A stretch of 64,000 bases of DNA from Promethearchaeota archaeon (GCA_048941265.1 JBHLNT010000001.1:21974-85973), one strand, 5' to 3'. Shown: positions 777 through 49,923, counted from the stretch's first letter. A program made the numbers and translations. Notes: a model not told the origin generated them from the sequence alone.

Positions 777-3188
777 ATGAATGATATCCAATTATTTGAG
801 ACATTTCATGGTAAAATAGCAGATCTTTTTCGTCCTGAGAACTATTTCACTTTTTTAGCTGGAGCTGGAATTTCCATGGATGCTCCAACAAATATGCCCT
901 CTGCAAGAGAAATTGTGAAATCGTTATTGGGATTTTGTGGTCCTCCTGATGAACTAGAAAATATATTATCTCTTGATTTGTTGAGATATGAGCTTGTTGT
1001 TGAAAAAATACAGAGTATTTTCGATGAAGAGTTAAAATTCATGGACTATTTAGAACTTATTACCTCTCCAAATATCATCCATTTGTTCTTAGCCCATCTT
1101 ATTAAAAAAGGACATTATGTTATCACGACGAATTTTGATTACTTAATTGAACATGCGTTAATTAATGTCCTTCCAAAAAATCAACATTTTAGCATTTATC
1201 CTATTATTACAAAAGAAGATTTTCTTTCATTTCGGGAACCGAGAAGGTTAATAGAAACAGAAAAATATCCCATATTCAAAATTCATGGTTCAAAACGTAA
1301 TATAATCACTGGAGAGTCGACTCATGAATCGTTAATAACAACCATTAGCGCATTAGGACGAGAGCGGGAAGAAGGAGAGACGTTTGCCATAGAACCCTAT
1401 AAAAAACCAGCAATTTATAATCTAATGAAAGATCGTACGCTAGTGATAATGGGGTATTCTGGGAGTGATGATTTTGATATTGGTCCTATGTTAAAAGAAT
1501 TACCGTTTCTTTCAAGATTAATTTGGATTGAACATTCGTTTGATGATCAGATAAAAATAATGAAAGTTAATAAGACAAATAATTTAACTTCGAAAGCGCA
1601 TCTTTCTCACTCTGAGCGTCTTTTAGCTGAAATTAGCGTAAGTGGAGATTTTGACGTCTTTTTAATAAAAAGTAATACTGCAAATATTATTAAAAACGAA
1701 TTATGGAAGATTCTATTATCTAATATTTCTATAAATCATTTAAAATTAACAGAATCAGTAAAAAAGATCCCCGTTTTCCATGAATGGGTCAAAATACTAT
1801 ATCAAGACTTACCTTTAGCTGAAAAATATAACCTTGCATGCCAAATATTTTACTTTTTAAAACAAATTGATGCAACAGTTAGGTGTTCAGAAAAAGGTAA
1901 AAGTTTGGCTGAATCTGTCAATGATATAGCAAGTAAATCTATTTTTCTCAATTTTTTAGGAATGGTTAATCTTATAAGAGGAGATTATAACAAAGCTTTA
2001 GAAAATTACAATGAATCACTTCTGATTGATGAAAAGCTAGAAAATTTATCTGGAAAAACGACAGATTTAAACAATATAGGATCAGTATATCTAACGTTAG
2101 GTAAATATGATGAGGCTCTTGAAAAATATGAAAATGCCTTAAAGATAAGTAATCAAATTGGTGATCTTTCAGGAATGACAGCAGATTTGAACAACATTGG
2201 CAGGATTTATGAAATACGAGGGGAATATGATTTAGCACTTAAGCGATATGAGGAAGCTTTACGTAATTCTGAACAGTTAGGAGATCTTGGCTTAAAATCA
2301 ACACTTCTTAATAATATAGGAATGATACATGGAGCACGTGCAAATTTTGATAAAGCACTTAAGAATTATGAGGAAGCTCTCCATATTGTAGATCAATTAG
2401 GGGATCTTTATGGAAAAATTATTTTACTCAATAATATTGGCAGGATTTATGATGAACATCAAAATTATGATGCTGCTATGGAAAAATATGAGGAAACTAT
2501 TTTAATCGCAGAGCAACTGGGCGACCTCGCAAAGAAAGCAGGATGTCTCAATAATGTTGGTTCAGTCTATCGTGCTAAAGGTAATCTTGAGGAAGCAATC
2601 AAGAAATATGAAGAAGCATTACAAATTGAAGAAAGATTAGGAGATCCCTTAATGAAGATCATCTATCTTAATAATATCGGAATGATTTATGCTTCACGTG
2701 GTGAATTTAATAATGCTTTAGAGAAATATAAAATCGGATTGACCATAGCAGAAGAAATTGGTGATTTCTCGAAAGTTGCTTTACTTTCAACTAAAATTGG
2801 TTCAATATATTTACAAATGGAAGATATTACAGTTGCGCTTGAAAATTATGAAAATGCCGTTAAACTTTACGAGCAAGCGGGAGATTTAGCTAATAAGGCA
2901 GCAAGTCTCAGTAATTTAGGAAAAATATTTGAAATACAAAATAACTATGAGAAGGCTCTCGATATATATAAAGAAACTCTCCAAATTGATGATCAAATTG
3001 GAGATTCAATGAGTAAAGCGAGTGATCTTAATAATATTGGCAAAATTTATGAGTTCCAAGGCAGATTTAATGAAGCTGTAAAAATTTATGAAGAAATTTT
3101 AGAAATTCTCCAGCAAAAAGGACAAGAAGACTATATAGAAATGTTTAAGGAGAAAATAGAACAATTGAAAGAAAAACTAAAAGAATAG
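777..3188 (+). CDS. SIR2_2-family (sirtuin-like NAD-binding) domain protein fused to a 10-repeat TPR array
   Basis: N-terminal motifs are FLAGAGIS (NAD-binding GAGxS), ITTNFDYLIE (TTNYD-like), FKIHGS (catalytic-His motif) and IMGYSGSDD. The C-terminal 400 aa form ten 40-aa TPR units (xxxLNNIGxIYxxxGxYDxALxxYEEALxIxxxLGD). No Walker A/P-loop is visible between the two parts. Confidence 0.8.
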   Translation: MNDIQLFETFHGKIADLFRPENYFTFLAGAGISMDAPTNMPSAREIVKSLLGFCGPPDELENILSLDLLRYELVVEKIQSIFDEELKFMDYLELITSPNIIHLFLAHLIKKGHYVITTNFDYLIEHALINVLPKNQHFSIYPIITKEDFLSFREPRRLIETEKYPIFKIHGSKRNIITGESTHESLITTISALGREREEGETFAIEPYKKPAIYNLMKDRTLVIMGYSGSDDFDIGPMLKELPFLSRLIWIEHSFDDQIKIMKVNKTNNLTSKAHLSHSERLLAEISVSGDFDVFLIKSNTANIIKNELWKILLSNISINHLKLTESVKKIPVFHEWVKILYQDLPLAEKYNLACQIFYFLKQIDATVRCSEKGKSLAESVNDIASKSIFLNFLGMVNLIRGDYNKALENYNESLLIDEKLENLSGKTTDLNNIGSVYLTLGKYDEALEKYENALKISNQIGDLSGMTADLNNIGRIYEIRGEYDLALKRYEEALRNSEQLGDLGLKSTLLNNIGMIHGARANFDKALKNYEEALHIVDQLGDLYGKIILLNNIGRIYDEHQNYDAAMEKYEETILIAEQLGDLAKKAGCLNNVGSVYRAKGNLEEAIKKYEEALQIEERLGDPLMKIIYLNNIGMIYASRGEFNNALEKYKIGLTIAEEIGDFSKVALLSTKIGSIYLQMEDITVALENYENAVKLYEQAGDLANKAASLSNLGKIFEIQNNYEKALDIYKETLQIDDQIGDSMSKASDLNNIGKIYEFQGRFNEAVKIYEEILEILQQKGQEDYIEMFKEKIEQLKEKLKE
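1935..3134 (+). repeat. intragenic tandem array: ten consecutive 120-bp (40-codon) TPR-encoding units
   Basis: Residues K387-Y786 of the 803-aa ORF split into ten units of exactly 40 aa with conserved LNNIG, YD.AL and YEEAL...GD positions. Confidence 0.85.
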
Positions 3189-3222
3189 AGTAAATTTAAA
3201 TTAATCATAGACAAAAGTATAG

Positions 3223-3768
3223 CTAATTTGAATAACTCTCAATTACATTTTCAAAATCTTTATATTCTGGTAACTCGGTCAAAACGATTCCAATATGTTT
3301 TAAATTCTTGTTTTTTTGTAATAAGTATTTTTTTATCGTAGGAATCATAACATTGGCACAAATTTTTGCATTAAAACCCAAATTCTCTAGAGAAACTGGA
3401 CTAAACGCAATAGATTTTAACCCAGCCTCATCTGCTAAAGTTAATGAATTCCAAGTACACAACATAATTTTCTTTCCTTCTTTTCCTTGGCCTAATTGCG
3501 GACCAACTGTATGAATAATGTGCTTTGATTTCAGGTTTCCTGCTGAAGTTATTACTGCTGCACCCACTCCAATAATACCAACTTTATTAATTATTTTATT
3601 ACATTCCATCTGTACATTAGCTCCGGCCTCTCGCAATACTTCACATCTTAATTTACCACTTGGGAGGAGTCTGGTATTTGAAGGGATTACAATTGCATCA
3701 AAATCAACATTTCTAATATCTTTAACTAAGATTTCCACGATAGTATTATTCACTGTAATTTTATTCAT
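3223..3768 (-). CDS. macro domain protein (ADP-ribose / O-acetyl-ADP-ribose binding or hydrolysing, Af1521/MacroD-like)
   Basis: Motifs FDAIVIPSNTRLLPSG, IIHTVGPQ and KSIAFSPVS correspond to the DAIVNAAN / VIHxVGP / SIAFPxIS signature positions of macro domains. Length is 181 aa. Confidence 0.8.
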   Translation of the reverse strand: MNKITVNNTIVEILVKDIRNVDFDAIVIPSNTRLLPSGKLRCEVLREAGANVQMECNKIINKVGIIGVGAAVITSAGNLKSKHIIHTVGPQLGQGKEGKKIMLCTWNSLTLADEAGLKSIAFSPVSLENLGFNAKICANVMIPTIKKYLLQKNKNLKHIGIVLTELPEYKDFENVIESYSN

Positions 3769-5003: not shown

Positions 5004-5516
5004 CTATTTGAATCTATTTATTTCAATAATTTTTCTTACTAATTTTTCTACATTCTCTTCAACAATCTTTAATATTCTATTATAGTTTTCTACTCCCGTC
5101 CTATACGGATCAGGAATATTTAAGGATTCCTCTTTTGATGCTCCATTAAATTGTTTAAGAGTAAATAATTTTCCGTCTAAAAATTTTTTCAAATCTCTAA
5201 ATTTGTTTGTTATTTTTACGAGATGGTATTTTTCCATTCCAATTATAAGATCTTGCTTTTTTAACAATTCACGTGTAATGACTTTTGGTCGAAAATTAGA
5301 GATATCAAGCCCTTTAGATTGGACATAATTTATAGTTTCAGGTTGAGCATAATCAAACGCAATATGCCAGCCTGCTGAATCGAAATTTACATCATTTAAC
5401 TCCTTTTTATATTTAGTTTGTTTTAAACCTTTAGCAAAATACTCAGCAGCAGGAGATCTGCAAGTATTAGCATAGCAGATAAAAAGCACATTTGAAATTT
5501 TATTAGATTCACTCAT
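5004..5516 (-). CDS. low-molecular-weight protein-tyrosine phosphatase / ArsC-like (paralog 1 of 3)
   Basis: CX5R(S) P-loop in VLFICYANTCRSPAAE; DP general-acid motif in IPDPY; 170 aa. Confidence 0.85.
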   Translation of the reverse strand: MSESNKISNVLFICYANTCRSPAAEYFAKGLKQTKYKKELNDVNFDSAGWHIAFDYAQPETINYVQSKGLDISNFRPKVITRELLKKQDLIIGMEKYHLVKITNKFRDLKKFLDGKLFTLKQFNGASKEESLNIPDPYRTGVENYNRILKIVEENVEKLVRKIIEINRFK

Positions 5517-5541
5517 TTTTCTAACAATTTACTTTTTAAAA

Positions 5542-6069
5542 TTAACTTACTCGATTATTAATTTGGATTATTTTTTTTACTGCCAATTCAACATACTTAT
5601 TAATAATTTCGAGTATTTTTGCGTAAAAATTTGAACTTGTATAGTAGGGATCAATTATATCCAAATTTTTAACTTCTCCGCTAAATTCCTTTAATGTATA
5701 TGTTTTTTTATCGATATCCTTTACATTACCATAAGTTCTTTTAATATCTAATGAATGAGAATCTTCCATCGTTAGAATGAGATCTGCCTTTTCTAATAAA
5801 GTTCTATCTATAACCTTAGGTCTAAAGTCTGAATCGTCTATCTTCTTTGAATGAAGGTAACTCCGAGATTCAGGTTGCATATAAGAGAACGCATTAAAAA
5901 ATCCAGCACTATCAAAAGTTACATCTTTAAGGTCTTCCTTAAATTGTTCTTTTAAACCTTTAGCTAAATATTCAGCGACGGGACTTCTTGCGGTATTACC
6001 CATACAAATAAAGAGTACTTTCAAAATCTTTTTTTTAATTATTTTCCTCAACTTTTTTATTAATTTCAA
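5542..6069 (-). CDS. low-molecular-weight protein-tyrosine phosphatase (paralog 2 of 3)
   Basis: VLFICMGNTARSPVAE (CX5RS) and IIDPYY. The annotated start overlaps the upstream paralog by 35 nt. Confidence 0.85.
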   Translation of the reverse strand: MKLIKKLRKIIKKKILKVLFICMGNTARSPVAEYLAKGLKEQFKEDLKDVTFDSAGFFNAFSYMQPESRSYLHSKKIDDSDFRPKVIDRTLLEKADLILTMEDSHSLDIKRTYGNVKDIDKKTYTLKEFSGEVKNLDIIDPYYTSSNFYAKILEIINKYVELAVKKIIQINNRVS

Positions 6070-6544
6070 TGATTTTTTTTAATGCTTTTTCGACTCCAAA
6101 CTCAACTTTTTCCATAACTTTTTGATATTCATCTGATTCAAAATCAATTGGGTCTGGAATTTCAATATTATCTTTTTCTCCAATAAAATCAAATAATAAG
6201 TAGACTTTCTCATTAAGATTCTTAATATTTTTAAATTTTCTTTTAAATTTCTTTATGTGCCACTGCTCTTCGAAACCAAGAATTAAATCCTGTTTAAATA
6301 TTAAGTCTTCATCAATTTGTTTACCCTCAAAATCACTGAAATCAATACCTTTATCGTTAAGATACTTAGCCGTTCCCTCTCGGGGTGTTTTAAAATAATT
6401 ATAAAGTCCAGCAGAATCAAAATTTACGTCTTTTAAATTCTCTTTAAATTTTGTTTCTTTTAACCATTTTGCAATATATTCTGCTCCAGGACTTCTTGAT
6501 GTGTTCCCGCTACATAAAAATAAGACATTTCTAATCCTTCCCAT
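6035..6544 (-). CDS. low-molecular-weight protein-tyrosine phosphatase (paralog 3 of 3)
   Basis: VLFLCSGNTSRSPGAE (CX5RS) and IPDPIDF; 169 aa. Confidence 0.85.
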   Translation of the reverse strand: MGRIRNVLFLCSGNTSRSPGAEYIAKWLKETKFKENLKDVNFDSAGLYNYFKTPREGTAKYLNDKGIDFSDFEGKQIDEDLIFKQDLILGFEEQWHIKKFKRKFKNIKNLNEKVYLLFDFIGEKDNIEIPDPIDFESDEYQKVMEKVEFGVEKALKKIIEINKKVEENN

Positions 6545-12298: not shown

Positions 12299-12739
12299 TT
12301 AGTTTATTGTACGTCGAGATAATTTATTAGCTTTTTTTTTATACAAGTAAGTAAAATAATAATTTGAGCCAAAATAGAAGCCTGCCCAAGAAGGCATAAA
12401 GATTAGTGTAATCAGTAGATCCATCCATACTATAACAATTATAACACCTAAAAATACAAATATTGGAATTGATACATAAAATGCTATTTTATTCATCAAT
12501 AACGTACGCTCATAATAAGAAATGAGATTTCTTTGCTGCTTTGGACTAAGAACTGAAAAATGAGTGGGACATAATTTGTAATTCGCACATTTAAGACAAT
12601 AAAGCTCATTACATACCACACAAGTTGTGTAATTTAGAATCTTTCTGCCTTTATATCCATATTCTTTTGTTAAATATCTTCCACATACCGGACATTTTCC
12701 AATTATTACATCATTATATTCGTTTTCAGATATTACCAT
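12299..12739 (-). CDS. hypothetical zinc-ribbon membrane protein
   Basis: CPVCGR...CVVCNELYCLKCANYKLCPTH Cys clusters are followed by two hydrophobic helices. Confidence 0.5.
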   Translation of the reverse strand: MVISENEYNDVIIGKCPVCGRYLTKEYGYKGRKILNYTTCVVCNELYCLKCANYKLCPTHFSVLSPKQQRNLISYYERTLLMNKIAFYVSIPIFVFLGVIIVIVWMDLLITLIFMPSWAGFYFGSNYYFTYLYKKKANKLSRRTIN

Positions 12740-14406: not shown

Positions 14407-16155
14407 ATGGCAATCCTCCTTATTATGCTGATTATTCTTGCATCCATTATAATTCTCATTCTTTTACTAGTGTTTCGTTATCGTAGTTTTTTCGGCAAGA
14501 TAAAAGTAATAAAAAGAAAAAAAGAAAAAGAAAAGTCATTAGACGTGGCATTAGAAAAATATGTAAGAGAAGAAAGTAAAGAGCCCATGAAACAAAAATT
14601 AGAAAAAATAACTGAAATGATTGCTCAAACTGAAGCATATATCGAGGATACAGTAAAGAAAAAGGTCAGGGTTGCTAAAAGTCAACTCAAAGTTAAAGAA
14701 AGTGAAGAAGCATTAATTAGTAAAGCTAAGATGGAATATAATACTTTTATTTCAGACTTTAAATCAGCAATGCCTAAAACAGAGAAAGAACGAGTTCAGG
14801 ATATGAAAGAGCTTAAAAGTGCGATATTAATGCTCGAAACTTTTGATGAAGAATCTTATGAGGCAAAACCTAAGGAATATGATGCGGGATTAGGTATGTT
14901 TTATGATAAGATGTCGCGCCGGTTCCTTTCTATCATAAATGAAAATAATCTGAACAAATATGATTTTATACCTATCCACGAGATAAAATATTATGCTTTT
15001 TCAAATATCAAGAATATAAAAAACGATGACATTTTACCTATTTTAAACGTAATGAAAGATACAGAACTTTTGCGTAATTTAATCGAAATAAATCCTACGT
15101 TTCAAATCATTGTATTTAATAATGGGGAGAAATTAGATTTAACTTTCCCTGAAAAAGTTCTTTTAACATTTGCTTATGAAGAAGATATACTTACTAATCA
15201 AAAATTAATAGAGTTAACTGATTGGAAAGAGGATTATGCCAATAAAATTATTGAAGGTTTAAAGGATAAAGGTCTCATTAAGTTTGAAAATGAAAAAATT
15301 ACAGTTGAGAATTTTGGAAGTGTGGAGGAACGGAGAAATTGGAACAAAATAATTCAAAATAAAATAGAAGAAGAGAAGAAAAAAGAAGAGGAAAAACGTA
15401 AACAACAGTTAGAAAGAGCCGCAAAGCTGAAAGAACGCTTAGGAGAGGTTGAAGAAGCAGTTATCTCAAAAGAGTCTGACTCTGAAAAAGTATTAAAACA
15501 AGAGCCAAGTAAAATTAAATTCAAGCAAAAACCTGCAATAAAAAAATTACCAAAACTTGAAGGAGAAATTAAACCAGAAGAGGTCACTAGTAAAGATAAA
15601 CTTAAGGAAGAACAAGATATTAAGGACAAGGATGATTTAATCGGAGCCATGGAGGCCCTTGACATAATAGCGCCCGCGAAATCGGTAGAAAAATTAGAAT
15701 TAAAAGGAGATCTACTAGAAGAAGAAATTTCCAATCTTGAAGAATTAATCCCTGAAAAAATATTAAGTTATCATGAAAAATTCACGTTGATTAATGGAGG
15801 TTTGTCTCAATATGAAAAAATAAAGCGATTTATTGAGCGGGAGTTAGGAAAAATATCCGATGATTTGATAAAATCTGTACTTGAACAGCTAATAGAATTG
15901 CAGATGATACATGGCATATATAAAATTGGAGATTATGATTTTTACCTTTTTAATGAATTGTCACTAACAGAGGATGAAAAAACATTCATTCAATTTGCTA
16001 TTAACAAGAAACCTATGTTTAAGGAAGATTTTATACAAGGATTAAATTGGGATGAGGAAAAAATTTTAAAAACTATGAAAACTCTTCAAGAAAAAAGTAT
16101 TTTAAGAATTGAAAACAACGAAATTATTATCCCTGGGATAATTCAAAATAGATAA
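14407..16155 (+). CDS. hypothetical membrane-anchored protein with two tandem winged-helix-like modules separated by a K/E-rich linker (paralog A)
   Basis: N-terminal TM (AILLIMLIILASIIILILLLVF) and coiled-coil. WH-like segments include LIELTDWKEDYANKIIEGLKDKGLIKFENEKITVENFG and FIQGLNWDEEKILKTMKTLQEKSILRIENNEIIIPG. Colinear with the next gene. Confidence 0.6.
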   Translation: MAILLIMLIILASIIILILLLVFRYRSFFGKIKVIKRKKEKEKSLDVALEKYVREESKEPMKQKLEKITEMIAQTEAYIEDTVKKKVRVAKSQLKVKESEEALISKAKMEYNTFISDFKSAMPKTEKERVQDMKELKSAILMLETFDEESYEAKPKEYDAGLGMFYDKMSRRFLSIINENNLNKYDFIPIHEIKYYAFSNIKNIKNDDILPILNVMKDTELLRNLIEINPTFQIIVFNNGEKLDLTFPEKVLLTFAYEEDILTNQKLIELTDWKEDYANKIIEGLKDKGLIKFENEKITVENFGSVEERRNWNKIIQNKIEEEKKKEEEKRKQQLERAAKLKERLGEVEEAVISKESDSEKVLKQEPSKIKFKQKPAIKKLPKLEGEIKPEEVTSKDKLKEEQDIKDKDDLIGAMEALDIIAPAKSVEKLELKGDLLEEEISNLEELIPEKILSYHEKFTLINGGLSQYEKIKRFIERELGKISDDLIKSVLEQLIELQMIHGIYKIGDYDFYLFNELSLTEDEKTFIQFAINKKPMFKEDFIQGLNWDEEKILKTMKTLQEKSILRIENNEIIIPGIIQNR

Positions 16156-16209
16156 TTAAATTTTAAATAAATATTAAAAGCAAACAAATAAATAATTGAG
16201 CAGAAAATT

Positions 16210-17883
16210 ATGGTTATGATAATTATTATTCAAATTTGTTTTATTGGATTAATAGGTATTTTTTCTCTAAGAGAAAAATTGAGAAAAAGAAGAATAAAAA
16301 AAAAGGAAGAAATTGAAGAATTAATTGATAAATATGTAGTCGAAGAGAAAAAAAGCATATTAAGACAGAAGTTAACAAAGGTTTTTGAATTAATCACTAA
16401 AACTGAAGATTATCTCGAAAGAATTGTTAAAAGAAAAGTAAAATTCTATGAAGATGATTATACATTTTCTGAAGCTGAGAAGGATCTAATTAAAAAAGCT
16501 AAATCTGAATACGATTCATTTTTCTCAGAATTTAAATCGGCATTACCCAAAACTGAAAAACAACGAATATTAGATATAAAAGAGCTTAAGAATGCAATTT
16601 CAATACTGGAATCATTTGATGCAGAAACTTATGAAGATAAGGAAAAAGTCTATGATGCGGGAACAGGTATGTTCTATGATAAAATGTCTCGTAAATTTAT
16701 GTATCTCATGGATGAACACAACTTGAGTGAATTTACTTTTGTACCTATCCAAAGAATAAAATATTATGCATTTTCAACTATAAAAAATATAAAAGATGAG
16801 GATTTCATCCCCGTCTTAAGTGTAATGAAAGAAACTAATCTTATAAGTGATATTATAGAAATAAACCCTCAGTTTCAAATTATAGTGTTTGATGAGGAAA
16901 AAAAAATAGTGTTATCCACCCCCGAAAAAGTAGTATTAAGTTTTGCCTATGATGAAGATCCCTTGACTCTTCATAAACTAATGGAATTAACCCAATGGAA
17001 ACAAGATTATGCTAAAAAAATACTAACTGAATTAATTAACAGAGAAATTATCTCTATGGAAGATGAGGTTATAAAAGTTAAGAATTTTGGTGAGAGTAAT
17101 GAAAGGATCAAATGGAATACTTTAATTGAAAATAAAATTCAGCAAGAGAGAATAAAAGAAGAGAGAAAATACGAAAAAAAGAAAGAAAGAGAGCTTCAAT
17201 TTAAAACAAAAATAGTAAAAGAGAAACAAATTTTTGATGAGAAAATCTCTGAGCCAGATAAGGAGGAAGTCCTTGAAGAAATCAAGTTTAAAGAAATACC
17301 ATCCGTAAAAGTGCTTCCTTCCCCACAGAAAGCATTAGAAATAGAAAAAAAGAAGGGAACTGAAGAAATGACCGATGTTATAGACGCTTTAGATAATATT
17401 ATGCCAACAGAATCAACAATTAATAAAGAAGTTGAAGAATTGCTAGAAACTGAAAGTCCGGATTTGCAAGATTTAGTTTCTCAAGAAATATTAAACTATC
17501 ATGAAAATTTTTCTTTAATTAATGGAGGAATTTCTCAATATGAAAAAATTAAAAAATATATTGAGCAAGAATTAGAAAATGTACCAGAAGAAATGTTAAA
17601 AAAGACGTTGGAACAATTATGGGAATTACGACTTATTTATGAAATAATTAAAATAGGGGATTATGATTTTTTCTTGTTTAACGATGTTTCTCTTAAAGAT
17701 GACGATAAGGAATTTTTAAAATTTGCTATTAACAAAAAACCTATGAAAAACGAAGATTTTATTCAAGGTCTTAATTGGGAAGAGTATAAAATAACATGGA
17801 CTATAGAGAGACTACAAGAAAAAGGGTTGTTAAGAAAAGAAAATGATTATATTATTATTCCAGGGATCGTTCAATTAGAATAA
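16210..17883 (+). CDS. hypothetical membrane-anchored double tandem-winged-helix protein (paralog B)
   Basis: Aligns along its whole length with 14407-16155. Shared blocks are SALPKTEK, YDAG.GMFYDKMSR.F, IKYYAFS.IKNIK, INP.FQIIVF, INGG.SQYEKIK, KIGDYDF.LFN, FAINKKPM and EDFIQGLNW. Confidence 0.6.
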   Translation: MVMIIIIQICFIGLIGIFSLREKLRKRRIKKKEEIEELIDKYVVEEKKSILRQKLTKVFELITKTEDYLERIVKRKVKFYEDDYTFSEAEKDLIKKAKSEYDSFFSEFKSALPKTEKQRILDIKELKNAISILESFDAETYEDKEKVYDAGTGMFYDKMSRKFMYLMDEHNLSEFTFVPIQRIKYYAFSTIKNIKDEDFIPVLSVMKETNLISDIIEINPQFQIIVFDEEKKIVLSTPEKVVLSFAYDEDPLTLHKLMELTQWKQDYAKKILTELINREIISMEDEVIKVKNFGESNERIKWNTLIENKIQQERIKEERKYEKKKERELQFKTKIVKEKQIFDEKISEPDKEEVLEEIKFKEIPSVKVLPSPQKALEIEKKKGTEEMTDVIDALDNIMPTESTINKEVEELLETESPDLQDLVSQEILNYHENFSLINGGISQYEKIKKYIEQELENVPEEMLKKTLEQLWELRLIYEIIKIGDYDFFLFNDVSLKDDDKEFLKFAINKKPMKNEDFIQGLNWEEYKITWTIERLQEKGLLRKENDYIIIPGIVQLE

Positions 17884-17944: not shown

Positions 17945-19696
17945 TTAATAATTATTTTTTACATTATCCATAACAGTTTCAATTTCATTTAAATAGGTAT
18001 CTCGTTTTCCAAAAATATAAAATCTAACTTCAGGTCCTGTACCCGAGGGGCGAAAGTATAGCGTGGAATCTTTACTTTTTAATTGGTAGATATCTATCAT
18101 ATTATTATTATCAGATAAAGCTTGTACACTATAGTGTTTATCTTTTATTTCTATAGTTTTATTATGATTTCTTTCAAAATTTTTCATAATCTTTACTTTC
18201 TCCTCATCAGTTGCCGGTATTGTTTGATTTATTCCCATTATTGACCAATCGATTGATTGAGATATAATATATCCTCTGCAAATAAGTTCAGTAATTAGTA
18301 CTAAAGCAGGAACCGGATATTTATCAGCTATTAAAGGTAAAGGGGAAGAAAAAGAAAATTCTCTTGTATCTGAATTTCTTGATACATTTAAAATGTTAAT
18401 CGTATGCCCTCCCGATTCTTCCCACATCACTGTGACAAATTGACTTTCCTCTAAATGTTGTTTTTCCATTAAATCAATAATCTTTTGGTTCAATGGGATA
18501 GGATTGTCTATTTTTATCAATTCTTTATTATCTCCTTGCATATAAAGGATGGCAGTATCAATCTTAGACTTTTCAACTTCTATTCCCATTAGAAAATATA
18601 ATATCACTCCTAAATGTTTATAGCCCACGCCAGTCAAAATATTCATAAAGCTAGTATCATCACTTCTTAAGTCAGTTGGAATCGTCCGGATATTGATAAT
18701 TTTTTTATTGAAATCTTTAGCTAAAATGTTATGCATGGCAGAATAAATTTCATTTGGGATATATATGAAATACTGATCATCTCGCTTCACATAAAGAGCA
18801 ATTCTGTCGCGATCAGCATCAAGCAATAGCGCTAAATTTGAGTTGGATTCAGTCATTACTTTCTGCAACTTTTCCTCCTTAATCACTTTGATGGGATTAG
18901 GGGGATTTATTTCTTCATTTATTAAAATTACATTTGCTCCATAATCTTTAAATAAATTTACGATGCCACGTGCTTCACCTAAATATGGCCAGATTATTAT
19001 ATTTCTATTCTTCAAACTTTTTATTTCCAATACATCAGCCAAAATCCCTTTCACATATTCATTATTTCTTTGAATGGCATCCGTGAGTATTGGCTTAAAA
19101 TCAGTTTTAAAATAAATTTCTTTATAGTTTTTTGCTAGTTCAGAAATTTGCTTAAATAAATCCCCTGACATCGGAATAGGGTACTCAATATAAAATTTTA
19201 TACCATTCCAAGATAAATCATTATGACTTGCCGTAAGTACAATCACAAGATCAATGTCATCATATAATGCTACTGATGCTGCACCATAAGGGGATGAAAC
19301 TTTAGACTCCCCTGGAAAATCGTCTTGGTAATAAATTTCATATCCATCATATGCAAAAATTTGTGAAATATAATTTAGGAGGATATCTTTGCTTGGTCTA
19401 TCATCAGTAACAATTAGAACCTTTAAATTCTGGCCATTTTTAATCTCTTTGAATTTGTCACTAATTGCTTTTGCAACTCGTAGGAATAAGAAGAGCTTTC
19501 GATTAGTTAAGAAGTATTGATCGTCGGCAAGGATATCATATATTTGAATTCTCAAACCAGATGTAGGTGCGACTATTGGATCAATTATGTTTATTTCTTC
19601 TTCAATTAACTCTGGTAATATCAATTTTTTAATTCCATTTTTACCATCAGTCATTTGGAGATCTTCAATTTTATATTTGAACAATTTATCCACCAT
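17945..19696 (-). CDS. phosphoglucomutase/phosphomannomutase family (alpha-D-phosphohexomutase)
   Basis: Active-site Ser loop LTASHNDLSWNGIKF, Mg loop LDADRDRIAL, sugar loop WEESGGH and phosphate loop RPSGTGPEVRFY. Confidence 0.85.
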   Translation of the reverse strand: MVDKLFKYKIEDLQMTDGKNGIKKLILPELIEEEINIIDPIVAPTSGLRIQIYDILADDQYFLTNRKLFLFLRVAKAISDKFKEIKNGQNLKVLIVTDDRPSKDILLNYISQIFAYDGYEIYYQDDFPGESKVSSPYGAASVALYDDIDLVIVLTASHNDLSWNGIKFYIEYPIPMSGDLFKQISELAKNYKEIYFKTDFKPILTDAIQRNNEYVKGILADVLEIKSLKNRNIIIWPYLGEARGIVNLFKDYGANVILINEEINPPNPIKVIKEEKLQKVMTESNSNLALLLDADRDRIALYVKRDDQYFIYIPNEIYSAMHNILAKDFNKKIINIRTIPTDLRSDDTSFMNILTGVGYKHLGVILYFLMGIEVEKSKIDTAILYMQGDNKELIKIDNPIPLNQKIIDLMEKQHLEESQFVTVMWEESGGHTINILNVSRNSDTREFSFSSPLPLIADKYPVPALVLITELICRGYIISQSIDWSIMGINQTIPATDEEKVKIMKNFERNHNKTIEIKDKHYSVQALSDNNNMIDIYQLKSKDSTLYFRPSGTGPEVRFYIFGKRDTYLNEIETVMDNVKNNY

Positions 19697-19867
19697 GTAA
19701 TGATAACTAAAAATTTTAAATTATTAGATTTAAGTAATTGAAAAGTTAAAATTTTTATTAAATTATTTTAATCCTCAAATTAGAGATTTTCTCGAATTTT
19801 TTGCTGCTTACTTACATACAAAATTTTTGATACACATTTTAGATTTAAAAAATTAATCTTTAAAAGT

Positions 19868-20737
19868 CTATTTTTGAGAATAGATCTGATTGATTGCTTC
19901 TTTTAATATGGCAAAAATTTTTTCTCTATAATTTGGATTAATTGCAATCATGCCATGAACTTTAATCGGTGAAGGAAGATTCTCAGGTTGGAAGAGAATT
20001 TTCTCACAAAATTCGGGAGTGAGCCGATTAGGAAGGTCTTGTTTATTAGCAATTCCAATTATCAATGTATCCTTATGATATTTTCCTAAGATATCACTTA
20101 TGATTTCCTTTGATGCATTTAAATTCTCAAATGTAGAATCTAATACTAAAAGTGCAATGTGAGTCCCTTCTAATAGACTTCTCCATAATGAGTGAAACTG
20201 ACGCTGACCAGCAAAGTCCCAGAAAATAACTGGTAGATTTCCAAGTTCAGGACTCTCATAATTGGCTATATCAGCAGTTATGGTAGGAACGTATTCTAAG
20301 TCAATATCTTTACCGCATATTAAATGTAGTAGCGTTGTCTTCCCAACCCCTCCATAACCTATAATAGATACCTTAACTGCACCTAATATCACATTATCAA
20401 TAGCTTTTTCAAATCTGTCAAAAACCGAACGATCTCCATCCCAAGCCCCACCTTCAAAAACCATCCCATATTCATCAATGAATTTAGCCCTAATGCTATT
20501 AATTTTTGAATTTATATGTGCATCATCATCTTCCAAATCAGCACATACTACAATAATTAAAGATCCTACAATTGTATAGAAATATTTAAAATCTTCAGTG
20601 GCAGTGGATTTTATATCGGATTGGCTAATCTCTTTTATAAATCCCGAAAAAGCAGAAAGAAAACCAGATAAAAGATCACGATCTATTTCAGTATCACCAT
20701 AATTTCTGAAGAATAACGATTTTCCGTCTTTGAGCAT
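19868..20737 (-). CDS. roadblock/longin-like domain fused to Ras-superfamily small GTPase
   Basis: The C-terminal half carries G1 GYGGVGKTTLL, G3 WDFAGQRQF and G4 ANKQDL. The N-terminal ~110 aa (DRDLLSGFLSAFSGFIKEISQ...) is Roadblock/LC7/longin-like. Confidence 0.75.
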   Translation of the reverse strand: MLKDGKSLFFRNYGDTEIDRDLLSGFLSAFSGFIKEISQSDIKSTATEDFKYFYTIVGSLIIVVCADLEDDDAHINSKINSIRAKFIDEYGMVFEGGAWDGDRSVFDRFEKAIDNVILGAVKVSIIGYGGVGKTTLLHLICGKDIDLEYVPTITADIANYESPELGNLPVIFWDFAGQRQFHSLWRSLLEGTHIALLVLDSTFENLNASKEIISDILGKYHKDTLIIGIANKQDLPNRLTPEFCEKILFQPENLPSPIKVHGMIAINPNYREKIFAILKEAINQIYSQK

Positions 20738-20887
20738 TATGTTGACGTATTGTATTATATTTTACCACTTCAGAAGTTTTTTATTTATGTACTATATTAT
20801 TAAAATATATTTATTAAATAAACTTGATAAATTAAAAATTATTTTTTTCCAAAATTTAGATCTTTATTTGAAACAGAGGAATGTTTA

Positions 20888-21514
20888 ATGCCAAAATCGG
20901 ATGATTTGAATCAGGGAGATATTGCTAAGTTGATTGAAAATTTAAATGAAAAAATGAACGGATTTTCTTCAATCATTCAAAAGTTCGGATTAGATATTAT
21001 TACAAAAATGGGGCAAACTAATTCTAAAATAAAAGTACTTTCTGATAAAGTAGATAAACTTGATAAGACTACTTTAGATTTAAAGGCATTACTTCCAAAA
21101 TTAACCAATATTATAGATAATCAAAATATTTTGGAATCAGAAATCGATCTTATAAAATCCTTAATTCAAAGAACGAGTACTTCAATGCCACAGAATGAGC
21201 TTGAAAGAGAGATTGAAAGAGACGAATCTATTACAATGAATAAACAAGAAGTCACTGACCAATTTAAAGAATTACTGAAAATTTTAAATGATACAGAAGA
21301 GAACCAAAAGATTAAAAAAGAATTACAGAAAATAAAGGAAAATATCTTTGAATTTACTGGAGGTCATAAAATTCTTTATGAAATTTCGCAAGTTTTGAAC
21401 AAAATGAATAATGATCAATCCATTTCCGAAAGTTTGAGAAAGGAACTTAAGGAAAAAATCGAATTTTGGATTGTTAAGTTGCAAAGCACACCATTTAAAA
21501 AAGCAATAAAGTAG
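20888..21514 (+). CDS. hypothetical coiled-coil protein
   Basis: Charged, heptad-rich 208-aa ORF lying between the two GTPase genes. No enzymatic motif is visible. Confidence 0.5.
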   Translation: MPKSDDLNQGDIAKLIENLNEKMNGFSSIIQKFGLDIITKMGQTNSKIKVLSDKVDKLDKTTLDLKALLPKLTNIIDNQNILESEIDLIKSLIQRTSTSMPQNELEREIERDESITMNKQEVTDQFKELLKILNDTEENQKIKKELQKIKENIFEFTGGHKILYEISQVLNKMNNDQSISESLRKELKEKIEFWIVKLQSTPFKKAIK

Positions 21515-21565
21515 AAATACTATAATTCAAAAAGTGGTAAAATATTTAAAATAAAAATTGATTAA

Positions 21566-22135
21566 TTATCCCTTAGTTCTATATGTAAATACTAAGTTAG
21601 CAATCTTTTCAAAGATTTCATTAACGCCATTTCCCGTTAACGCAGAAGTTTCGAAATAAGGTGCATTTAATTCCTCGCTAAGGTGATTTGCCATGGGGAG
21701 GATAATCTTTCTTTCATCCTTTAAATCGATTTTATTTCCGACTAAAATTCGGGGTATCGCGCTAAGTCCATATTTTACTGTGGTATTGTACCAATTCTTA
21801 ACATTTGAGAATGTGGAACTTCTCGTAACATCGAATACAAGCATCATACCATCAGCTCCATTAAAATACGGTTTATGCAGCATGTAGAATTGGGGCTGTC
21901 CTGCAACGTCCCAGAGCATTAGATTTACTAAAGCCTCTGCACCTTTATCTTTAACTATGACTTGCTCCTTGACAATATTAACACCTACAGTCGGAATATA
22001 TTGCGTCTTAAATTTTTTTGTAGCAAATTTTGTTAGGAGGCTTGTTTTTCCAACCGCCGGATCACCAACCACGATTACCTTAAAGATAGATTCAGTCTTT
22101 CCTTGAAATACTATATCTTCATCTTTTTTCGACAT
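21566..22135 (-). CDS. Rab/Ras-like small GTPase
   Basis: G1 VVGDPAVGKTSLL, switch I YIPTVGVNI, G3 WDVAGQPQF, G4 GNKIDL and G5 ETSALTG. There is no C-terminal Cys prenylation motif. Confidence 0.85.
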   Translation of the reverse strand: MSKKDEDIVFQGKTESIFKVIVVGDPAVGKTSLLTKFATKKFKTQYIPTVGVNIVKEQVIVKDKGAEALVNLMLWDVAGQPQFYMLHKPYFNGADGMMLVFDVTRSSTFSNVKNWYNTTVKYGLSAIPRILVGNKIDLKDERKIILPMANHLSEELNAPYFETSALTGNGVNEIFEKIANLVFTYRTKG

Positions 22136-43386: not shown

Positions 43387-46107
43387 CTATTGATACTTTT
43401 TCTTAAGATATTTATCAATAGCTTTCGCTGTTCTTTTTCCAGCACCCATGGCAGATATCACAGTAGCACTCCCAGTTACTATATCTCCACCAGCAAATAC
43501 ACCCTCTAGGTTGGACTGACCATTCTCATCAATTTCAATATAACCCCTTTTATTTAATTTTAGATCAGGGATTGTTTTGATGAGAGTTGGATTGGCTCTA
43601 GTTCCAATAGCAATGATAATTGTGTCTGTTTCTATTAGATACTCTGAGCCCTGAATTGATATGGGACGCCTTCTCCCAGATTCATCAGATTCTCCTAACT
43701 CCATCTTAATTACTTCCATAAACCTTACATTAGCATTCTCATCCCCTAAGAACCGTACTGGATTTGTTAAAAATTTGAACTCAATCCCTTCCTCTTTAGT
43801 ATGATGATATTCCTCTTTTCTTGCTGGCATTTCTACTTCGGATCTTCTATAGACGATAACGACTTTCTCCGCACCTAACCTGAGCGCTGTTCTTGCGGAA
43901 TCTAAAGCTACGTTACCTCCTCCTATAACAGTTACTATTTTGCCAATTTTAATTGGTGTATCATAATCAGGAAATCTATAAGCTTTCATTAAATTTGATC
44001 TTGTAAGAAATTCATTTGCCGTTAAAACACCGTTTAAATTTAATCCCTCAACATCCATAAGTATCGGTAATCCTGCACCAACTCCTATAAAAAATGCTTT
44101 AAATCCCATTTCTTTTAAATCCTCAAGATCTAAGGTCTTACCAATAAGAGTATTATATTGAATTTTGACATTTAGCATTTTTAATGTTTCAATTTCATCA
44201 TTTACAATTTCTTTTGGCAATCTAAATTCAGGGATGCCATAGGTGAGCACACCACCTCCAGTATGGAATGCTTCAAAAATGGTAACATCATATCCTTCCA
44301 TCGCTAATGTTCCGGCACATGTTATACCAGCAGGGCCTGAACCAATTACAGCAACTTTAATATCATTAGGGAGTTTACAATCAGGACATTCTTTAAGTCT
44401 ATTAGTTCTTTCCCAATCAGCAATAAATCTCTCCAAATAACCTATAGCTATAGGCTCTCCCAAAGTATTTAATATACAAGTTTGTTCACATTGTATCTCC
44501 TGTGGACATACTCTTCCACAAATCGCAGGTAATAAATTGCGTGATTTAATTTCTCGAAGTGCTTCAAAATATTTCTCTTCTTTTAAAAGATTTATAAATT
44601 TAGGAATTCTAATCTTTACAGGACACCCTTCTACACAAAGAGGTTTACCACATTGTAAACACCTATAGGTTTCTAATTTAACCATCTCTGTAGTTAAACC
44701 CTTAGAAACTTCTTCAAAGTTTGTAATTCTTATATCTGATTCTTGCTCAATCATGTAAGGCCTATGAAGCTTTCTATATTTATTAATTTTCGACTCCGCT
44801 ATTCCACTAAGATTAATAAAATTTTTATTATCCTCCTGCATTTCGCGTGCAATAATCATATTCAGATCTAATGCTTTTTGAAAAAATTCTGCACCCTTTT
44901 CAGTTCGAATTATCACAGTAGACCATCCATTCCCAGATCCAGCAGAGCCAACTGAAATATCGGCTTGTTCAGCTGTAAAATCATCACAATAGAAACAACC
45001 AAATCGACCATATTTTTTAATTCTTTCTATTGGTATATCATAAACTTTGTTATTTTTATTATAGATAATAAATCTCTCTTTAGTGATGTCCATCTTCTTG
45101 ATATCCCCCGGTCTACGTAGAAACTCGTTCTTTAAAAGTTCCACAATTTTCACATAGTCAAACGATTCCATGCAAAAAACTCCGATCTTAATTACAATAT
45201 TGTCATAAAATGATTTATTTAATGGATAGAAAGACATTTTTTTTAGTGCCTCCATTATACAAGGAGTGCCCACCACAGCAATATTCTGGTAATCCTTTAA
45301 ATCATGTAAAATCTTTAAAGTAGGAGAATTTGTATATTTAGTACCCGCAGTTTTTAAAAGATCTTGTTCATTTTCGATAAATACTGGCATAGGTTTTAAT
45401 GGTTCTACTGCAGTTCCAATAGCTAAAGCTCCATTAATCAACTTTTGTTGAAACGCCATTTTTAATAATGATGTGACTACTCCCCCATCTTGAGCAACTC
45501 TTTTTATTTGAGTATTAGTTGTTTGAGCTATGTAGATATTATGATAGTAATTAAATTGTTCCAAATACTTTAAAACTGTAGAGCTGCTTTTTTGAGATCT
45601 TTTTAAAGTCATAGGAAAGAAAGCTCGTGGACAACAAGTATAACATAATCCACAATCAATGCAAGCATCGTAATCAATTTCAAAAGTACTCTCATCATAA
45701 GCTATAGCTTCTATAGGACAGATTGATACACATAATCCACAGCCACAACAAAGATACGTTTCTCTAATTAAGGAAGCATTAGGAAAAATTCTCTTTTTTT
45801 CAAATTCATCAATTTTTTCTTGGAAGAATCTCGGATTTTTACCAACATTTTCTAATAATCCTAATTCTTTTAAATACTCTAAATTATAGATTAAAAATTG
45901 TCTGGATAGATTTAATTCATTTTTAAGATTTTGAATGTCTATAATACCATGTTCCTTGATTTTTTCTAGAATTCTATATCTCTCTTGCTCAGCATCAATT
46001 ACAGATTTAATGAAATTTTCATATTCAATTTCATTATATTTTCCTGCTTTTAGGATTTTATTTTTATTATTTAAAAGTATTTGGATTAAAGGAGTCTGTT
46101 CTTCCAT
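43387..46107 (-). CDS. multidomain oxidoreductase: wHTH-like N-terminus + 2x[4Fe-4S] ferredoxin + FrhB/FdhB-like (F420/flavin-binding) domain + NfnB/GltD-like NAD(P)H-flavin oxidoreductase (copy 2)
   Basis: Ferredoxin region is CCGCGLCVSICP...CIDCGLCYTCCP. FrhB-like region is VAQDGGVVTSLL, VVGTPCIMEALKK and CDDFTAEQADISVGS. GltD/NfnB-like region is RCLQCGKPLCVEGCP...ICGRVCPQEIQCEQTC, VAVIGSGPAGITCA, VIGGGNVALDSARTALRLGA and VFAGGD. Confidence 0.8.
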   Translation of the reverse strand: MEEQTPLIQILLNNKNKILKAGKYNEIEYENFIKSVIDAEQERYRILEKIKEHGIIDIQNLKNELNLSRQFLIYNLEYLKELGLLENVGKNPRFFQEKIDEFEKKRIFPNASLIRETYLCCGCGLCVSICPIEAIAYDESTFEIDYDACIDCGLCYTCCPRAFFPMTLKRSQKSSSTVLKYLEQFNYYHNIYIAQTTNTQIKRVAQDGGVVTSLLKMAFQQKLINGALAIGTAVEPLKPMPVFIENEQDLLKTAGTKYTNSPTLKILHDLKDYQNIAVVGTPCIMEALKKMSFYPLNKSFYDNIVIKIGVFCMESFDYVKIVELLKNEFLRRPGDIKKMDITKERFIIYNKNNKVYDIPIERIKKYGRFGCFYCDDFTAEQADISVGSAGSGNGWSTVIIRTEKGAEFFQKALDLNMIIAREMQEDNKNFINLSGIAESKINKYRKLHRPYMIEQESDIRITNFEEVSKGLTTEMVKLETYRCLQCGKPLCVEGCPVKIRIPKFINLLKEEKYFEALREIKSRNLLPAICGRVCPQEIQCEQTCILNTLGEPIAIGYLERFIADWERTNRLKECPDCKLPNDIKVAVIGSGPAGITCAGTLAMEGYDVTIFEAFHTGGGVLTYGIPEFRLPKEIVNDEIETLKMLNVKIQYNTLIGKTLDLEDLKEMGFKAFFIGVGAGLPILMDVEGLNLNGVLTANEFLTRSNLMKAYRFPDYDTPIKIGKIVTVIGGGNVALDSARTALRLGAEKVVIVYRRSEVEMPARKEEYHHTKEEGIEFKFLTNPVRFLGDENANVRFMEVIKMELGESDESGRRRPISIQGSEYLIETDTIIIAIGTRANPTLIKTIPDLKLNKRGYIEIDENGQSNLEGVFAGGDIVTGSATVISAMGAGKRTAKAIDKYLKKKYQ

Positions 46108-46155
46108 TTTTAGATACCTTAACTTTAATCTAAGATACCTTACTTTTGTACTTTT

Positions 46156-48897: not shown

Positions 48898-49768
48898 TTT
48901 CGTATTTTTCTAAGGCTCTGCATTCTCGATCATAGCACTCCGCTGACATTTTCTCTTGATCAAGAAATCTATTTGCGCGTTTTAAAAGATTATCAAAATC
49001 AACTATATGTCCATCAACATCTGGACCATCAACACAGGCAAAATAAATATCACCATCGAGTGTTGAAAATCGACATCCACCACACATTCCAGTTCCATCA
49101 ATCATTATTGTATTCAAAGAAACATATGTTTTTACTTTAGGAAAATTTCCAGATCCATTAGTTGTAAGAGTAACATACTTCATCATAATTAAAGGTCCAA
49201 TTGCGATAACAAGACTAATCTTCTCTCGCATAATTAGTTCCTTAAGTGGTTCAGTGACAACTCCTTTTATCCCCTCACTTCCATCGTCAGTACAGATGAT
49301 CAATTCATCACTTACTGAACGCATTTTTTCTCTCCAAAACAATAAATCCTTGTTTCTTGCACCTATTATTGTTATAATTTTATTTCCTGCTTCTTTTAAT
49401 TCCTTTGCTTGAGGATAACAAGGCGCAATTCCAATACCACCGCCTATAATGACAACCGGATATTCATATTTTTCAATATGAATTTTATTTCCAAGAGGTC
49501 CCACAATATCAAGAATCTCATCTCCCACGTTTTGATGAGAAAGTAATTTTGTACTTTTTCCAACAACTTGGACTACTATGGTTATGGTTCCCTTTTCTCG
49601 ATCATAATCTGCTATAGTTAAAGGAAACCGTTCACCCGTCTCATTAATTCTTATTAGAATAAAATTTCCTCCATGAGCTTTTCTTGATATGAGTGGCGTA
49701 TCTAATACCATTTCATATACTTGACCACTATTCCCAAGTTCTCGTTTTTCTAAAATTTTAAAAGGCAA
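48884..49768 (-). CDS. NfnA/SudB/PyrK-like FAD + [2Fe-2S] electron-transfer subunit
   Basis: ERFPLTIADYD (RxxS/T flavin motif region), IGGGIGIAPCYP (NAD(P) fold) and the C-terminal GTGMCGGCR...ACVDGP cluster motif; 294 aa. Confidence 0.8.
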   Translation of the reverse strand: MPFKILEKRELGNSGQVYEMVLDTPLISRKAHGGNFILIRINETGERFPLTIADYDREKGTITIVVQVVGKSTKLLSHQNVGDEILDIVGPLGNKIHIEKYEYPVVIIGGGIGIAPCYPQAKELKEAGNKIITIIGARNKDLLFWREKMRSVSDELIICTDDGSEGIKGVVTEPLKELIMREKISLVIAIGPLIMMKYVTLTTNGSGNFPKVKTYVSLNTIMIDGTGMCGGCRFSTLDGDIYFACVDGPDVDGHIVDFDNLLKRANRFLDQEKMSAECYDRECRALEKYESEAS

Positions 49769-49923
49769 TACTTTTTCCCCTTTTAGTTTAAAATACTTCC
49801 AAATTCTAAGAATTCTAAAATTATTTTGATTTTTTTAAATTTTTGATTATGATTTAGAAGAAAAATTCAAAAAGAAAAAACTTTTTCTGTAGTTGATATT
49901 TGAAATTTTATCTTTTTCTAAAG

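Follow-up and report, generated by a model that had tools for sequence, protein, structure and literature searches.

The 64,000-nucleotide stretch of DNA from Promethearchaeota archaeon analysed here (GCA_048941265.1 JBHLNT010000001.1:21974-85973, hereafter the window) contains two co-directional tandem genes, 54 bp apart, whose products of 582 and 557 amino acids (proteins 1 and 2) each combine an N-terminal membrane anchor and a helical stalk with two modules joined by a charged spacer. Each module very probably has the fold of EAP30/Vps22, a subunit of ESCRT-II, a complex that remodels membranes in eukaryotes, and would be distantly homologous to Vps22. The combination of two EAP30 units, a transmembrane anchor, a stalk and a linker motif is a new architecture, and the family that shares it is previously unannotated and Asgard-borne. 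Its members may act as membrane-resident ESCRT-II-like adaptors, a tentative interpretation that is at best evenly balanced.

Fold of the modules and their kinship with Vps22

The initial annotation had read two double winged-helix blocks into each protein and had named a predicted fold of another kind as the outcome that would speak against this. In the AlphaFold2 model of full-length protein 1, run on a 44-sequence alignment (mean predicted local distance difference test score, pLDDT, of 75), both blocks fold as winged-helix pairs, with the canonical order of strands and helices in each pair. The first two winged helices, WH1 (residues 182-240) and WH2 (241-302, with the invariant W273), reach pLDDT values of 81-93, and WH3 (465-518, starting with NGG) and WH4 (519-582, with W548) reach 82-93. 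A model of module 2 alone has a predicted template modelling score (pTM) of 0.69 and raises the values of its ordered part, including WH3 and WH4, to 85-98.

The winged-helix pairs were thus placed correctly, but the module extends two helices further upstream than had been annotated (protein 1 residues 126-151 and 160-179 in module 1, 399-419 and 441-463 in module 2). The first of these, helix A, shares the pattern D-x3-L-x2-A-x3-L-E/D between the modules, as QDMKELKSAILMLE in module 1 and as KDKDDLIGAMEALD in module 2, where this helix (A2) is followed by a loop. Helix B, which carries GxGMFY in module 1 (G161-x-G-M-F-Y166) and, as B2, LIPEKIL.YHEKF in module 2, runs straight into the first winged helix of its pair. 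Block 1 of one paralog aligns to block 2 of the other in BLASTP (E 6e-5), and the profiles of modules 1 and 2 from 44 relatives match each other with an hhalign probability of 97.8% (E 4.6e-12). Judged by these alignments, the two modules are homologous and form an internal repeat.

Structural comparison supports the likeness to ESCRT-II that had been proposed for these proteins and narrows it to Vps22/EAP30, to the exclusion of Vps25, cullin, Cdc6 and MarR. Among 350,542 chains searched with Foldseek, the top three matches of the module 2 model were human Vps22 (2zme_A, E 1e-7, and 3cuq_A) and yeast Vps22 (1u5t_A), with E values of 1e-7 to 8e-7 and template modelling (TM) scores of 0.56-0.61. 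Against the yeast chain, the TM score was 0.61 and the root-mean-square deviation 2.9 Å over 138 columns. The full-length model left the order of matches unchanged, evidently via module 2. Vps36 was matched weakly (E ~0.02, module 2). Vps25/EAP20 (PF05871), a pair of winged helices that has no helical region at its N-terminus, was absent from the best 50 Foldseek matches of both models, and Pfam gave no match to it either.

The families that come next in the Foldseek lists have TM scores of only ~0.3, which means that one winged helix superimposes and not two. They include RPC34 of RNA polymerase III (E 7e-5), Nse1/Nse3 (E 9e-4), SelB (~3e-3), UFL1-DDRGK1 (E 0.03) and cullin, and could indicate that the modules belong to some other tandem winged-helix scaffold, of the kleisin-binding Nse1/Nse3/ScpB, UFL1-DDRGK1, cullin/APC, SelB or RPC34 type. 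DDRGK1 resembles the family in outline, as it, too, has an N-terminal membrane anchor, with a charged helix and a winged helix behind it. Such an origin is nevertheless extremely unlikely: the query-normalised TM scores are ~0.26-0.31 versus 0.56-0.61 for Vps22, the E values are worse by 2 to 5 orders, and none of these families appeared in sequence-profile searches of the PDB.

Those profile searches point to Vps22 as well. Among 177,635 distinct PDB sequences, SNF8 (human Vps22) ranked first with the profile of module 1 (E 0.051) and with that of module 2 (E 0.02), values that are weak, in alignments that are in register: GxGMFY falls on GVGDFYY, the NGG at the start of WH3 on NGGL, and the invariant Trp of WH2 and WH4 on LKWETERA. 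Because two independent profiles pick SNF8, in register over both winged helices, a chance result is very unlikely. The hhalign probabilities against SNF8, 91% for module 2 and 25% for module 1, are conservative since only one sequence served as template, a human SNF8 assembled from the vertebrate SNF8 fragments retrieved; the EAP30 profile used for comparison was shallow. A search with a 107-amino-acid fragment of human SNF8 returned only vertebrate SNF8 fragments, and a plain single-sequence search of the PDB with the window protein gave no useful match.

Three orthologs match Pfam EAP30 (PF04157) in all. Two are among the 44 aligned relatives, and the third, the truncated ortholog P0016, passes the family threshold (27.4 versus 26.8 bits, E 3.4e-6) with a match to profile positions 31-217 of 219, which covers the helical region and both winged helices of module 1. 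The remaining Pfam matches of the 44 relatives are scattered over single winged-helix families. The window proteins themselves match nothing in Pfam or NCBIfam above threshold and give only sub-threshold single winged-helix matches, and all named homologs are annotated as 'hypothetical', in agreement with the first impression that no known family is represented.

Perhaps the scattered matches reflect a membrane-tethered nucleic-acid-binding protein, such as a regulator that works at the membrane or is set free from it, or a protein that tethers DNA or a replication origin. WH2 weakly matches Phage_rep_O in 11 of the 44 relatives (best E 2.3e-4), TrmB in nine (best E 3.7e-5) and DnaD_N in five, as well as MarR, and there is a match to PHROG 678 'replication initiation O-like' (E 3.7e-5). 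All of these lie below gathering scores and span one winged helix, or that plus the following charged helix, whereas the EAP30 match of P0016 spans a whole module. A direct family assignment via PHROGs was rejected, the match to PHROG 678 being weak and confined to WH2 and the charged helix. The repeat unit superimposes on Vps22 at a TM score of 0.6, compared with at most 0.3 for nucleic-acid-binding tandem winged-helix families. In addition, WH1 to WH4 have net charges of -1, -6, -3 and -1 and their third helices lack a basic cluster. As all four winged helices are net acidic, protein binding is favoured over DNA binding, and a nucleic-acid-binding role is very unlikely.

Anchor, spacer and distribution of the family

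Each protein begins with the single transmembrane helix that the initial annotation had described, made of 19-23 hydrophobic residues without interruption and followed by a basic cluster (Table 1). A hydrophobic N-terminus is common to nearly all full-length relatives. Because the basic cluster directly follows the hydrophobic stretch, the well-established positive-inside rule would place the N-terminus outside and the C-terminus, along with most of the protein, in the cytoplasm. A cleaved signal peptide was ruled out, as the hydrophobic stretch is ~22 residues long, lacks a basic n-region in front and has the +7 cluster after it, and no obvious cleavage motif is present. In the AlphaFold2 model, residues 2-116 of protein 1 form one continuous helix (pLDDT 64-91), and pLDDT falls below 50 at residues 115-120. 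The stalk amounts to roughly 90 residues of helix in each protein.

The spacer between the modules had been described as a low-complexity, E/K-rich stretch of ~100 amino acids. It is charged, as described, and partly disordered, but is longer (~140 amino acids) and has a conserved motif inside it. AlphaFold2 predicts a long charged helix at residues 306-350 of protein 1, and pLDDT is below 50 over residues 354-409 and 418-442. Across relatives, the length of the spacer ranges from ~100 to ~300 amino acids. The motif has the consensus (I/V)KFxxKPx(V/I)KxLP and was found in 40 of the 44 aligned relatives. Each of its residues F, K, P, K, L and P shows a conservation of 80% or more, and P376 is nearly invariant; the motif is missing from a clade labelled Hod/Thorarchaeota. 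A conserved island in a disordered linker is typical of docking motifs, which makes this element a candidate for one. Its core, P-x-V-x-x-L-P, loosely recalls the proline-rich MIM2 motifs that bind the MIT domains of Vps4, a likeness that is speculative. Equally speculatively, with its alternating hydrophobic and basic pattern the motif could add as a strand to a winged helix, as the E3B peptide of CdvA does with CdvB (PMC5840170).

Both open reading frames (ORFs) are real where they had been placed, and they are not chance ORFs, as a word-indexed search returned homologs in 91 clusters that match along the full length with 41-100% identity. Protein 1 is an exact match to a 'hypothetical protein' (P0001) of a metagenome-assembled genome of Promethearchaeota (Lokiarchaeota-type Asgard), and protein 2 is identical to its neighbour (P0030) on the same 114-kb contig. 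The proposed tandem paralogy is borne out by 51% identity and 74% positives over 533 amino acids (BLASTP, E 2e-173). No other paralog of the family is present in the AT-rich window (~26-36% G+C), where both module hidden Markov models match only these two ORFs. The two copies are sister clades nested inside an otherwise single-copy family; by this grouping, the tandem pair arose through a duplication specific to the lineage. The pair is retained by at least four contigs. The two copies may act together as a heteromer.

An exhaustive search of 1.84 billion representative proteins with the profile of the N-terminal module gave 71 matches, 63 of them at E 1e-10 or better. The sole outsider was a bacterial TIR protein (P0152) with repeated generic winged helices. 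A word-indexed search with the module 2 profile returned the family only, with no link to canonical Asgard Vps22. Family members are present in 26 GTDB species genomes. According to the submitters' own taxon labels, the sources are mostly Promethearchaeota, Lokiarchaeota or Promethearchaeia, and also include Sigynarchaeota and one 'Bathyarchaeota' bin. A few members, from one submitter, are labelled Hodarchaeota/Thorarchaeota and show a Loki-like gene order. As this order is near-identical to that of Loki genomes, the labels are doubtful and possibly wrong.

Nearly all full-length representatives (520-812 amino acids) share the order of transmembrane helix, stalk, module, spacer and module, including the Sigynarchaeota members (752-812 amino acids), whose proline-rich spacer is completely different. 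That this order is kept despite so different a spacer, and the motif in 40 of 44 relatives, indicates that the architecture is under selection. A thermophile lineage (P0137/P0276) lacks module 2. A Sigynarchaeota-type protein of 547 amino acids on a 3.7-Mb contig (P0143, L034:10001-11644) ends inside its proline-rich spacer. Members of the same 90% cluster are 752-812 amino acids long and have module 2, which is also absent from the next ORF after P0143 (525 amino acids). This copy appears truncated or rearranged.

Table 1 Positions of the tandem genes, the parts of their products and the conserved downstream block (window coordinates).
Feature	Position	Strand	Basis
Gene 1, 582-amino-acid membrane-anchored protein with two EAP30/Vps22-like modules	14407..16155	+	ORF, ATG start, TAA stop; AlphaFold2 model
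N-terminal transmembrane anchor, protein 1 residues 2-24	14410..14478	+	sequence, charge count
Basic juxtamembrane cluster, protein 1 residues 25-45, net +7	14479-14541	+	charge count
Helical stalk, protein 1 residues ~46-116, plus short low-confidence linker 117-120	14542..14766	+	AlphaFold2
EAP30-like module 1, protein 1 residues 121-302	14767..15312	+	AlphaFold2, hhalign, SNF8 profile ranking, ortholog Pfam EAP30
Spacer, protein 1: E/K/R-rich helix, residues 303-352, and disordered stretch, 353-398	15313..15600	+	composition, pLDDT
Short linear motif IKFKQKPAIKKLP, protein 1 residues 370-382	15514..15552	+	alignment columns
EAP30-like module 2, protein 1 residues 399-582	15601..16152	+	AlphaFold2 module model, Foldseek, profile, hhalign
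Gene 2, 557-amino-acid paralog, same architecture as gene 1	16210..17883	+	ORF, ATG start, TAA stop
Transmembrane anchor, protein 2 residues 2-20	16213-16269	+	sequence
Module 1, protein 2 residues ~111-292	16540-17085	+	
Spacer motif IKFKEIPSVKVLP, protein 2	17281-17319	+	alignment
Module 2, protein 2 residues ~381-557	17350-17880	+	
Stable downstream block	17945-22135; also loci L001-L033 and L035		gene order, Pfam, tblastn

Possible roles and gene neighbourhood

In eukaryotes, ESCRT-II is attached to the membrane by the GLUE domain of Vps36 together with the basic first helix of Vps22, which contacts lipids. If the family acts as a membrane-resident adaptor, its transmembrane helix and basic cluster would take over this role, and the remodelling machinery could be nucleated at the membrane without a recruitment step based on lipid or ubiquitin binding. 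Within ESCRT-II, the helical region before the first winged helix promotes the pairing of Vps22 with Vps36, the C-terminal winged helix of Vps22 binds Vps25, and in the eukaryotic complex a Vps25 is bound by each distal winged helix and in turn recruits ESCRT-III (PMC10936438). Asgard genomes contain one type of Vps22/36-like gene and no Vps36, and their Vps22 homodimerises, which is thought to replace the Vps22/Vps36 pair (Hatano et al. 2022, PMC9192718). In the family described here, two Vps22-like modules, in one chain or in two stalk-paired chains, might stand in for that pair (or for the Asgard Vps22 homodimer), and the distal winged helices WH2 and WH4, possibly with the linker motif, might dock Vps25-like, ESCRT-III or other partners. 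The acidic winged helices, the lack of a catalytic domain and the conserved linear motif in the spacer are consistent with an adaptor or scaffold.

A more specific form of this proposal is a single-chain, membrane-integral ESCRT-II core, in which the modules pair in cis as a 'Vps22/Vps36-like' pseudo-heterodimer and the distal winged helices, the KPxVKxLP peptide or both recruit Vps25, ESCRT-III or Vps4 directly. This arrangement is rather unlikely. If true, it would represent a ubiquitin-independent and constitutively membrane-bound route to ESCRT-III nucleation in Loki- and Sigyn-type Asgard archaea, and an independent example of the step of duplication and divergence that gave rise to the eukaryotic Vps36.

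Several observations weigh against the adaptor interpretation and the Vps22 assignment on which it builds. The full-length model of protein 1 has a pTM of 0.38 and thus gives no confident inter-domain arrangement. Similarity to the EAP30 profile is marginal, with a best E of 1.1e-5 for the two matching sequences among the 44 relatives and no EAP30 match of the window proteins in Pfam even at E up to 10. The structure search covered module 2 and the full-length model, and the assignment of module 1 rests on the Pfam match of the ortholog, the ranking of its profile in the PDB, a topology identical to that of module 2 and the homology between the two modules. The exhaustive search of 1.84 billion proteins did not retrieve any canonical Vps22. 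Family members also occur in two genomes with the label Hodarchaeota, a group in which ESCRT is reportedly lacking (PMC10936438). Finally, canonical Asgard vps22 and vps25 cluster with vps4, ESCRT-III, vps23 and vps28 (PMC9192718, PMC10936438), and the family genes do not show this neighbourhood of Asgard ESCRT-II. Apart from the family itself, no Snf7, Vps4/MIT-AAA, Vps25, Vps28 or EAP30 gene was found between 1 and 53 kb of the window, and no ESCRT gene lies within 10 kb of the family gene at loci L001-L007 or at the Sigynarchaeota-type locus L034.

Six of the seven distinct neighbourhoods with Pfam annotation are free of ESCRT genes. The only exception is the locus of a divergent Promethearchaeota member (P0131, L035), where two Snf7/ESCRT-III genes lie 8-9 kb upstream; no Snf7 was detected by tblastn in the other fetched loci. 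A gene for a 487-amino-acid protein of the actin family is also present at L035, and the Snf7 and actin genes (L035:537-6420) together span 4-9 kb upstream of the family gene, an arrangement that no other fetched locus shows. Since the fold agrees with that of Vps22, the sequence profile is borderline and the gene neighbourhood is not that of ESCRT-II genes, the window proteins are regarded as a distinct, distantly related family and not as Vps22 orthologs.

The genes that do surround the family are of other kinds. Upstream of the tandem pair lie genes for an S8 protease, a YdjM-like membrane protein, an ERCC4 nuclease, a zinc-ribbon membrane protein and, on the opposite strand, an acyl-CoA dehydrogenase. 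Downstream, a convergent gene for a PGM/PMM-like protein (583 amino acids, with a TASHN active-site loop) is followed by an Arf/Ras/Roc-type GTPase of 289 amino acids, a coiled-coil protein of 208 amino acids without a Pfam family, a Ras/Rab-like GTPase of 189 amino acids, a 2'-5' RNA ligase and a PUA protein. The two GTPases and the coiled-coil protein occupy 19868-22135. The 289-residue GTPase has a 120-residue N-terminal extension with a faint match to Fuz_longin_1 (E 0.18). Otherwise, the window from 1 to 53 kb holds metabolic and transport genes.

The convergent PGM-like gene follows the family gene in 32 of 35 fetched loci; a few of the contigs are present twice in this set, and in two of the three exceptions the contig breaks off. 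Wherever the contig reaches far enough, the other members of the block are kept as well, namely the extended GTPase, the coiled-coil protein and usually the Ras/Rab-like GTPase. The most divergent of the Loki-type members has this block, too, although it has other genes upstream. As the main alternative to a role in ESCRT, the Vps22 fold could thus serve in a membrane-anchored scaffold for another membrane process, perhaps together with the downstream GTPases and the coiled-coil protein. The persistence of the block, the faint longin match of the GTPase extension and the lack of nearby ESCRT genes in the window would all fit such a function. However, the neighbours are on the opposite strand or separately transcribed, the block is absent at the Sigynarchaeota-type locus L034, and the gene order may merely mirror the kinship of the genomes, gene order shared by related genomes being weak evidence of function. 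A scaffold outside ESCRT is therefore considered somewhat unlikely.

An origin of the gene pair in a defence system or mobile element was ruled out, as there is no PADLOC match, the order is stable in more than 30 genomes and the base composition is like that of the rest of the window. Several other genes of the window are worth recording. At 777-3768, an 803-amino-acid protein joins a SIR2-like domain (SIR2_2, E 1.6e-9) to a long TPR array, the C-terminal end of which scores as an MIT domain (37.3 versus a 30-bit cut-off), a result that may reflect TPR similarity only. A Macro-domain gene adjoins it on the opposite strand, and the two could be an NAD/ADP-ribose-related pair. Three tandem LMWPc genes (low-molecular-weight phosphotyrosine phosphatase or arsenate-reductase type) lie at 5004-6544 on the minus strand, and the triplet also occurs at L001. 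The minus-strand gene at 12299-12739 encodes a 146-amino-acid protein that has zinc-ribbon-like Cys-x2-Cys motifs at its N-terminal end and hydrophobic segments at its C-terminal end, but no Pfam family. By tblastn, it has no counterpart at that position in 35 related loci and looks like an insertion specific to this genome. At 43387-52680, also on the minus strand, three multi-domain iron-sulfur flavoproteins of ~910 amino acids are encoded together with a DHOD-B-type Fe-S subunit. Two of these are fusions of FrhB/FdhB-like and GltD-like parts, each with an N-terminal SelB-type winged-helix match or ferredoxin domains, and the third joins a GltD-like part to an HdrD-type CCG domain. The strand on which this cluster sits has a strongly negative GC skew.

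Comparison with known systems

ESCRT-II belongs to the signature 'eukaryotic' machinery of Asgard archaea. The present family suggests that the Vps22 fold was put to use a second time in Lokiarchaeia and Sigynarchaeia, in a form that is duplicated within one chain and permanently attached to the membrane. Should it engage Vps25 or ESCRT-III, the family would offer a new way into the ESCRT pathway of archaea. If it does not, the EAP30 fold would be a more general membrane-proximal scaffold.

Vps22/SNF8/EAP30 itself (PF04157; 3CUQ/2ZME chain A, 1U5T chain A) is the closest relative, with a helical region and two tandem winged helices in each module, the best structural match (TM 0.6), the best sequence match of both modules in the PDB, and GxGxFY, NGG and the Trp in register. 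In contrast to the family, which has two units per chain, an integral anchor and a long stalk, Vps22 is soluble and has one unit. Moreover, the window proteins stay below the Pfam threshold and the family genes lie away from ESCRT clusters.

Canonical Asgard ESCRT-II proteins (asCOG cog.002769 'EAP30/Vps22 family', cog.003176 Vps25 and cog.002441; PMC10936438) are likewise encoded by Asgard archaea and built from ESCRT-II-type paired winged helices, and ESCRT-II paralogs and domain arrangements are known to have diversified in Lokiarchaeia (Makarova et al. 2024, PMC10936438). These proteins, however, have ~250 amino acids or are fused to steadiness boxes or zinc ribbons, their genes lie in ESCRT clusters, and none has been described with a transmembrane anchor or two EAP30 units. 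No membrane-anchored or double EAP30 protein of Asgard archaea was found in the main or supplementary text of two ESCRT surveys (PMC9192718, PMC10936438) or by full-text literature searches of limited coverage.

Outside ESCRT-II, the proposed role is comparable to that of CdvA of Thermoproteota, a membrane-bound adaptor that brings in ESCRT-III (CdvB) through a contact between a winged helix and a short peptide (PMC5840170). The two are unrelated in sequence and fold: CdvA consists of a PRC barrel and a coiled coil, binds the membrane peripherally, and meets a winged helix that is on the ESCRT-III side. VIA1, the chloroplast and cyanobacterial 'ESCRT-II-like' partner of VIPP1 (bioRxiv 10.1101/2023.10.10.561251), sets a precedent as a winged-helix protein that stands outside canonical ESCRT-II and works with a membrane remodeller of the ESCRT-III superfamily, but comes from another lineage and has another architecture.

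Vps36/EAP45 offers a further parallel, as this paralog of Vps22 has the membrane-targeting element of the complex and uses the helical region and first winged helix to pair with Vps22, and the family also joins an EAP30 unit to a membrane-targeting element and to a second EAP30 unit. The elements themselves differ, as Vps36 carries a GLUE domain (PH-like, membrane- and ubiquitin-binding) where the family has a transmembrane helix. The family also lacks zinc fingers and any recognisable ubiquitin-binding part, and its structural match to Vps36 is, as noted, weak. Should Vps25 or ESCRT-III be engaged, the family would be a natural model for how a Vps22 duplicate can gain a membrane-targeting role, as Vps36 did.

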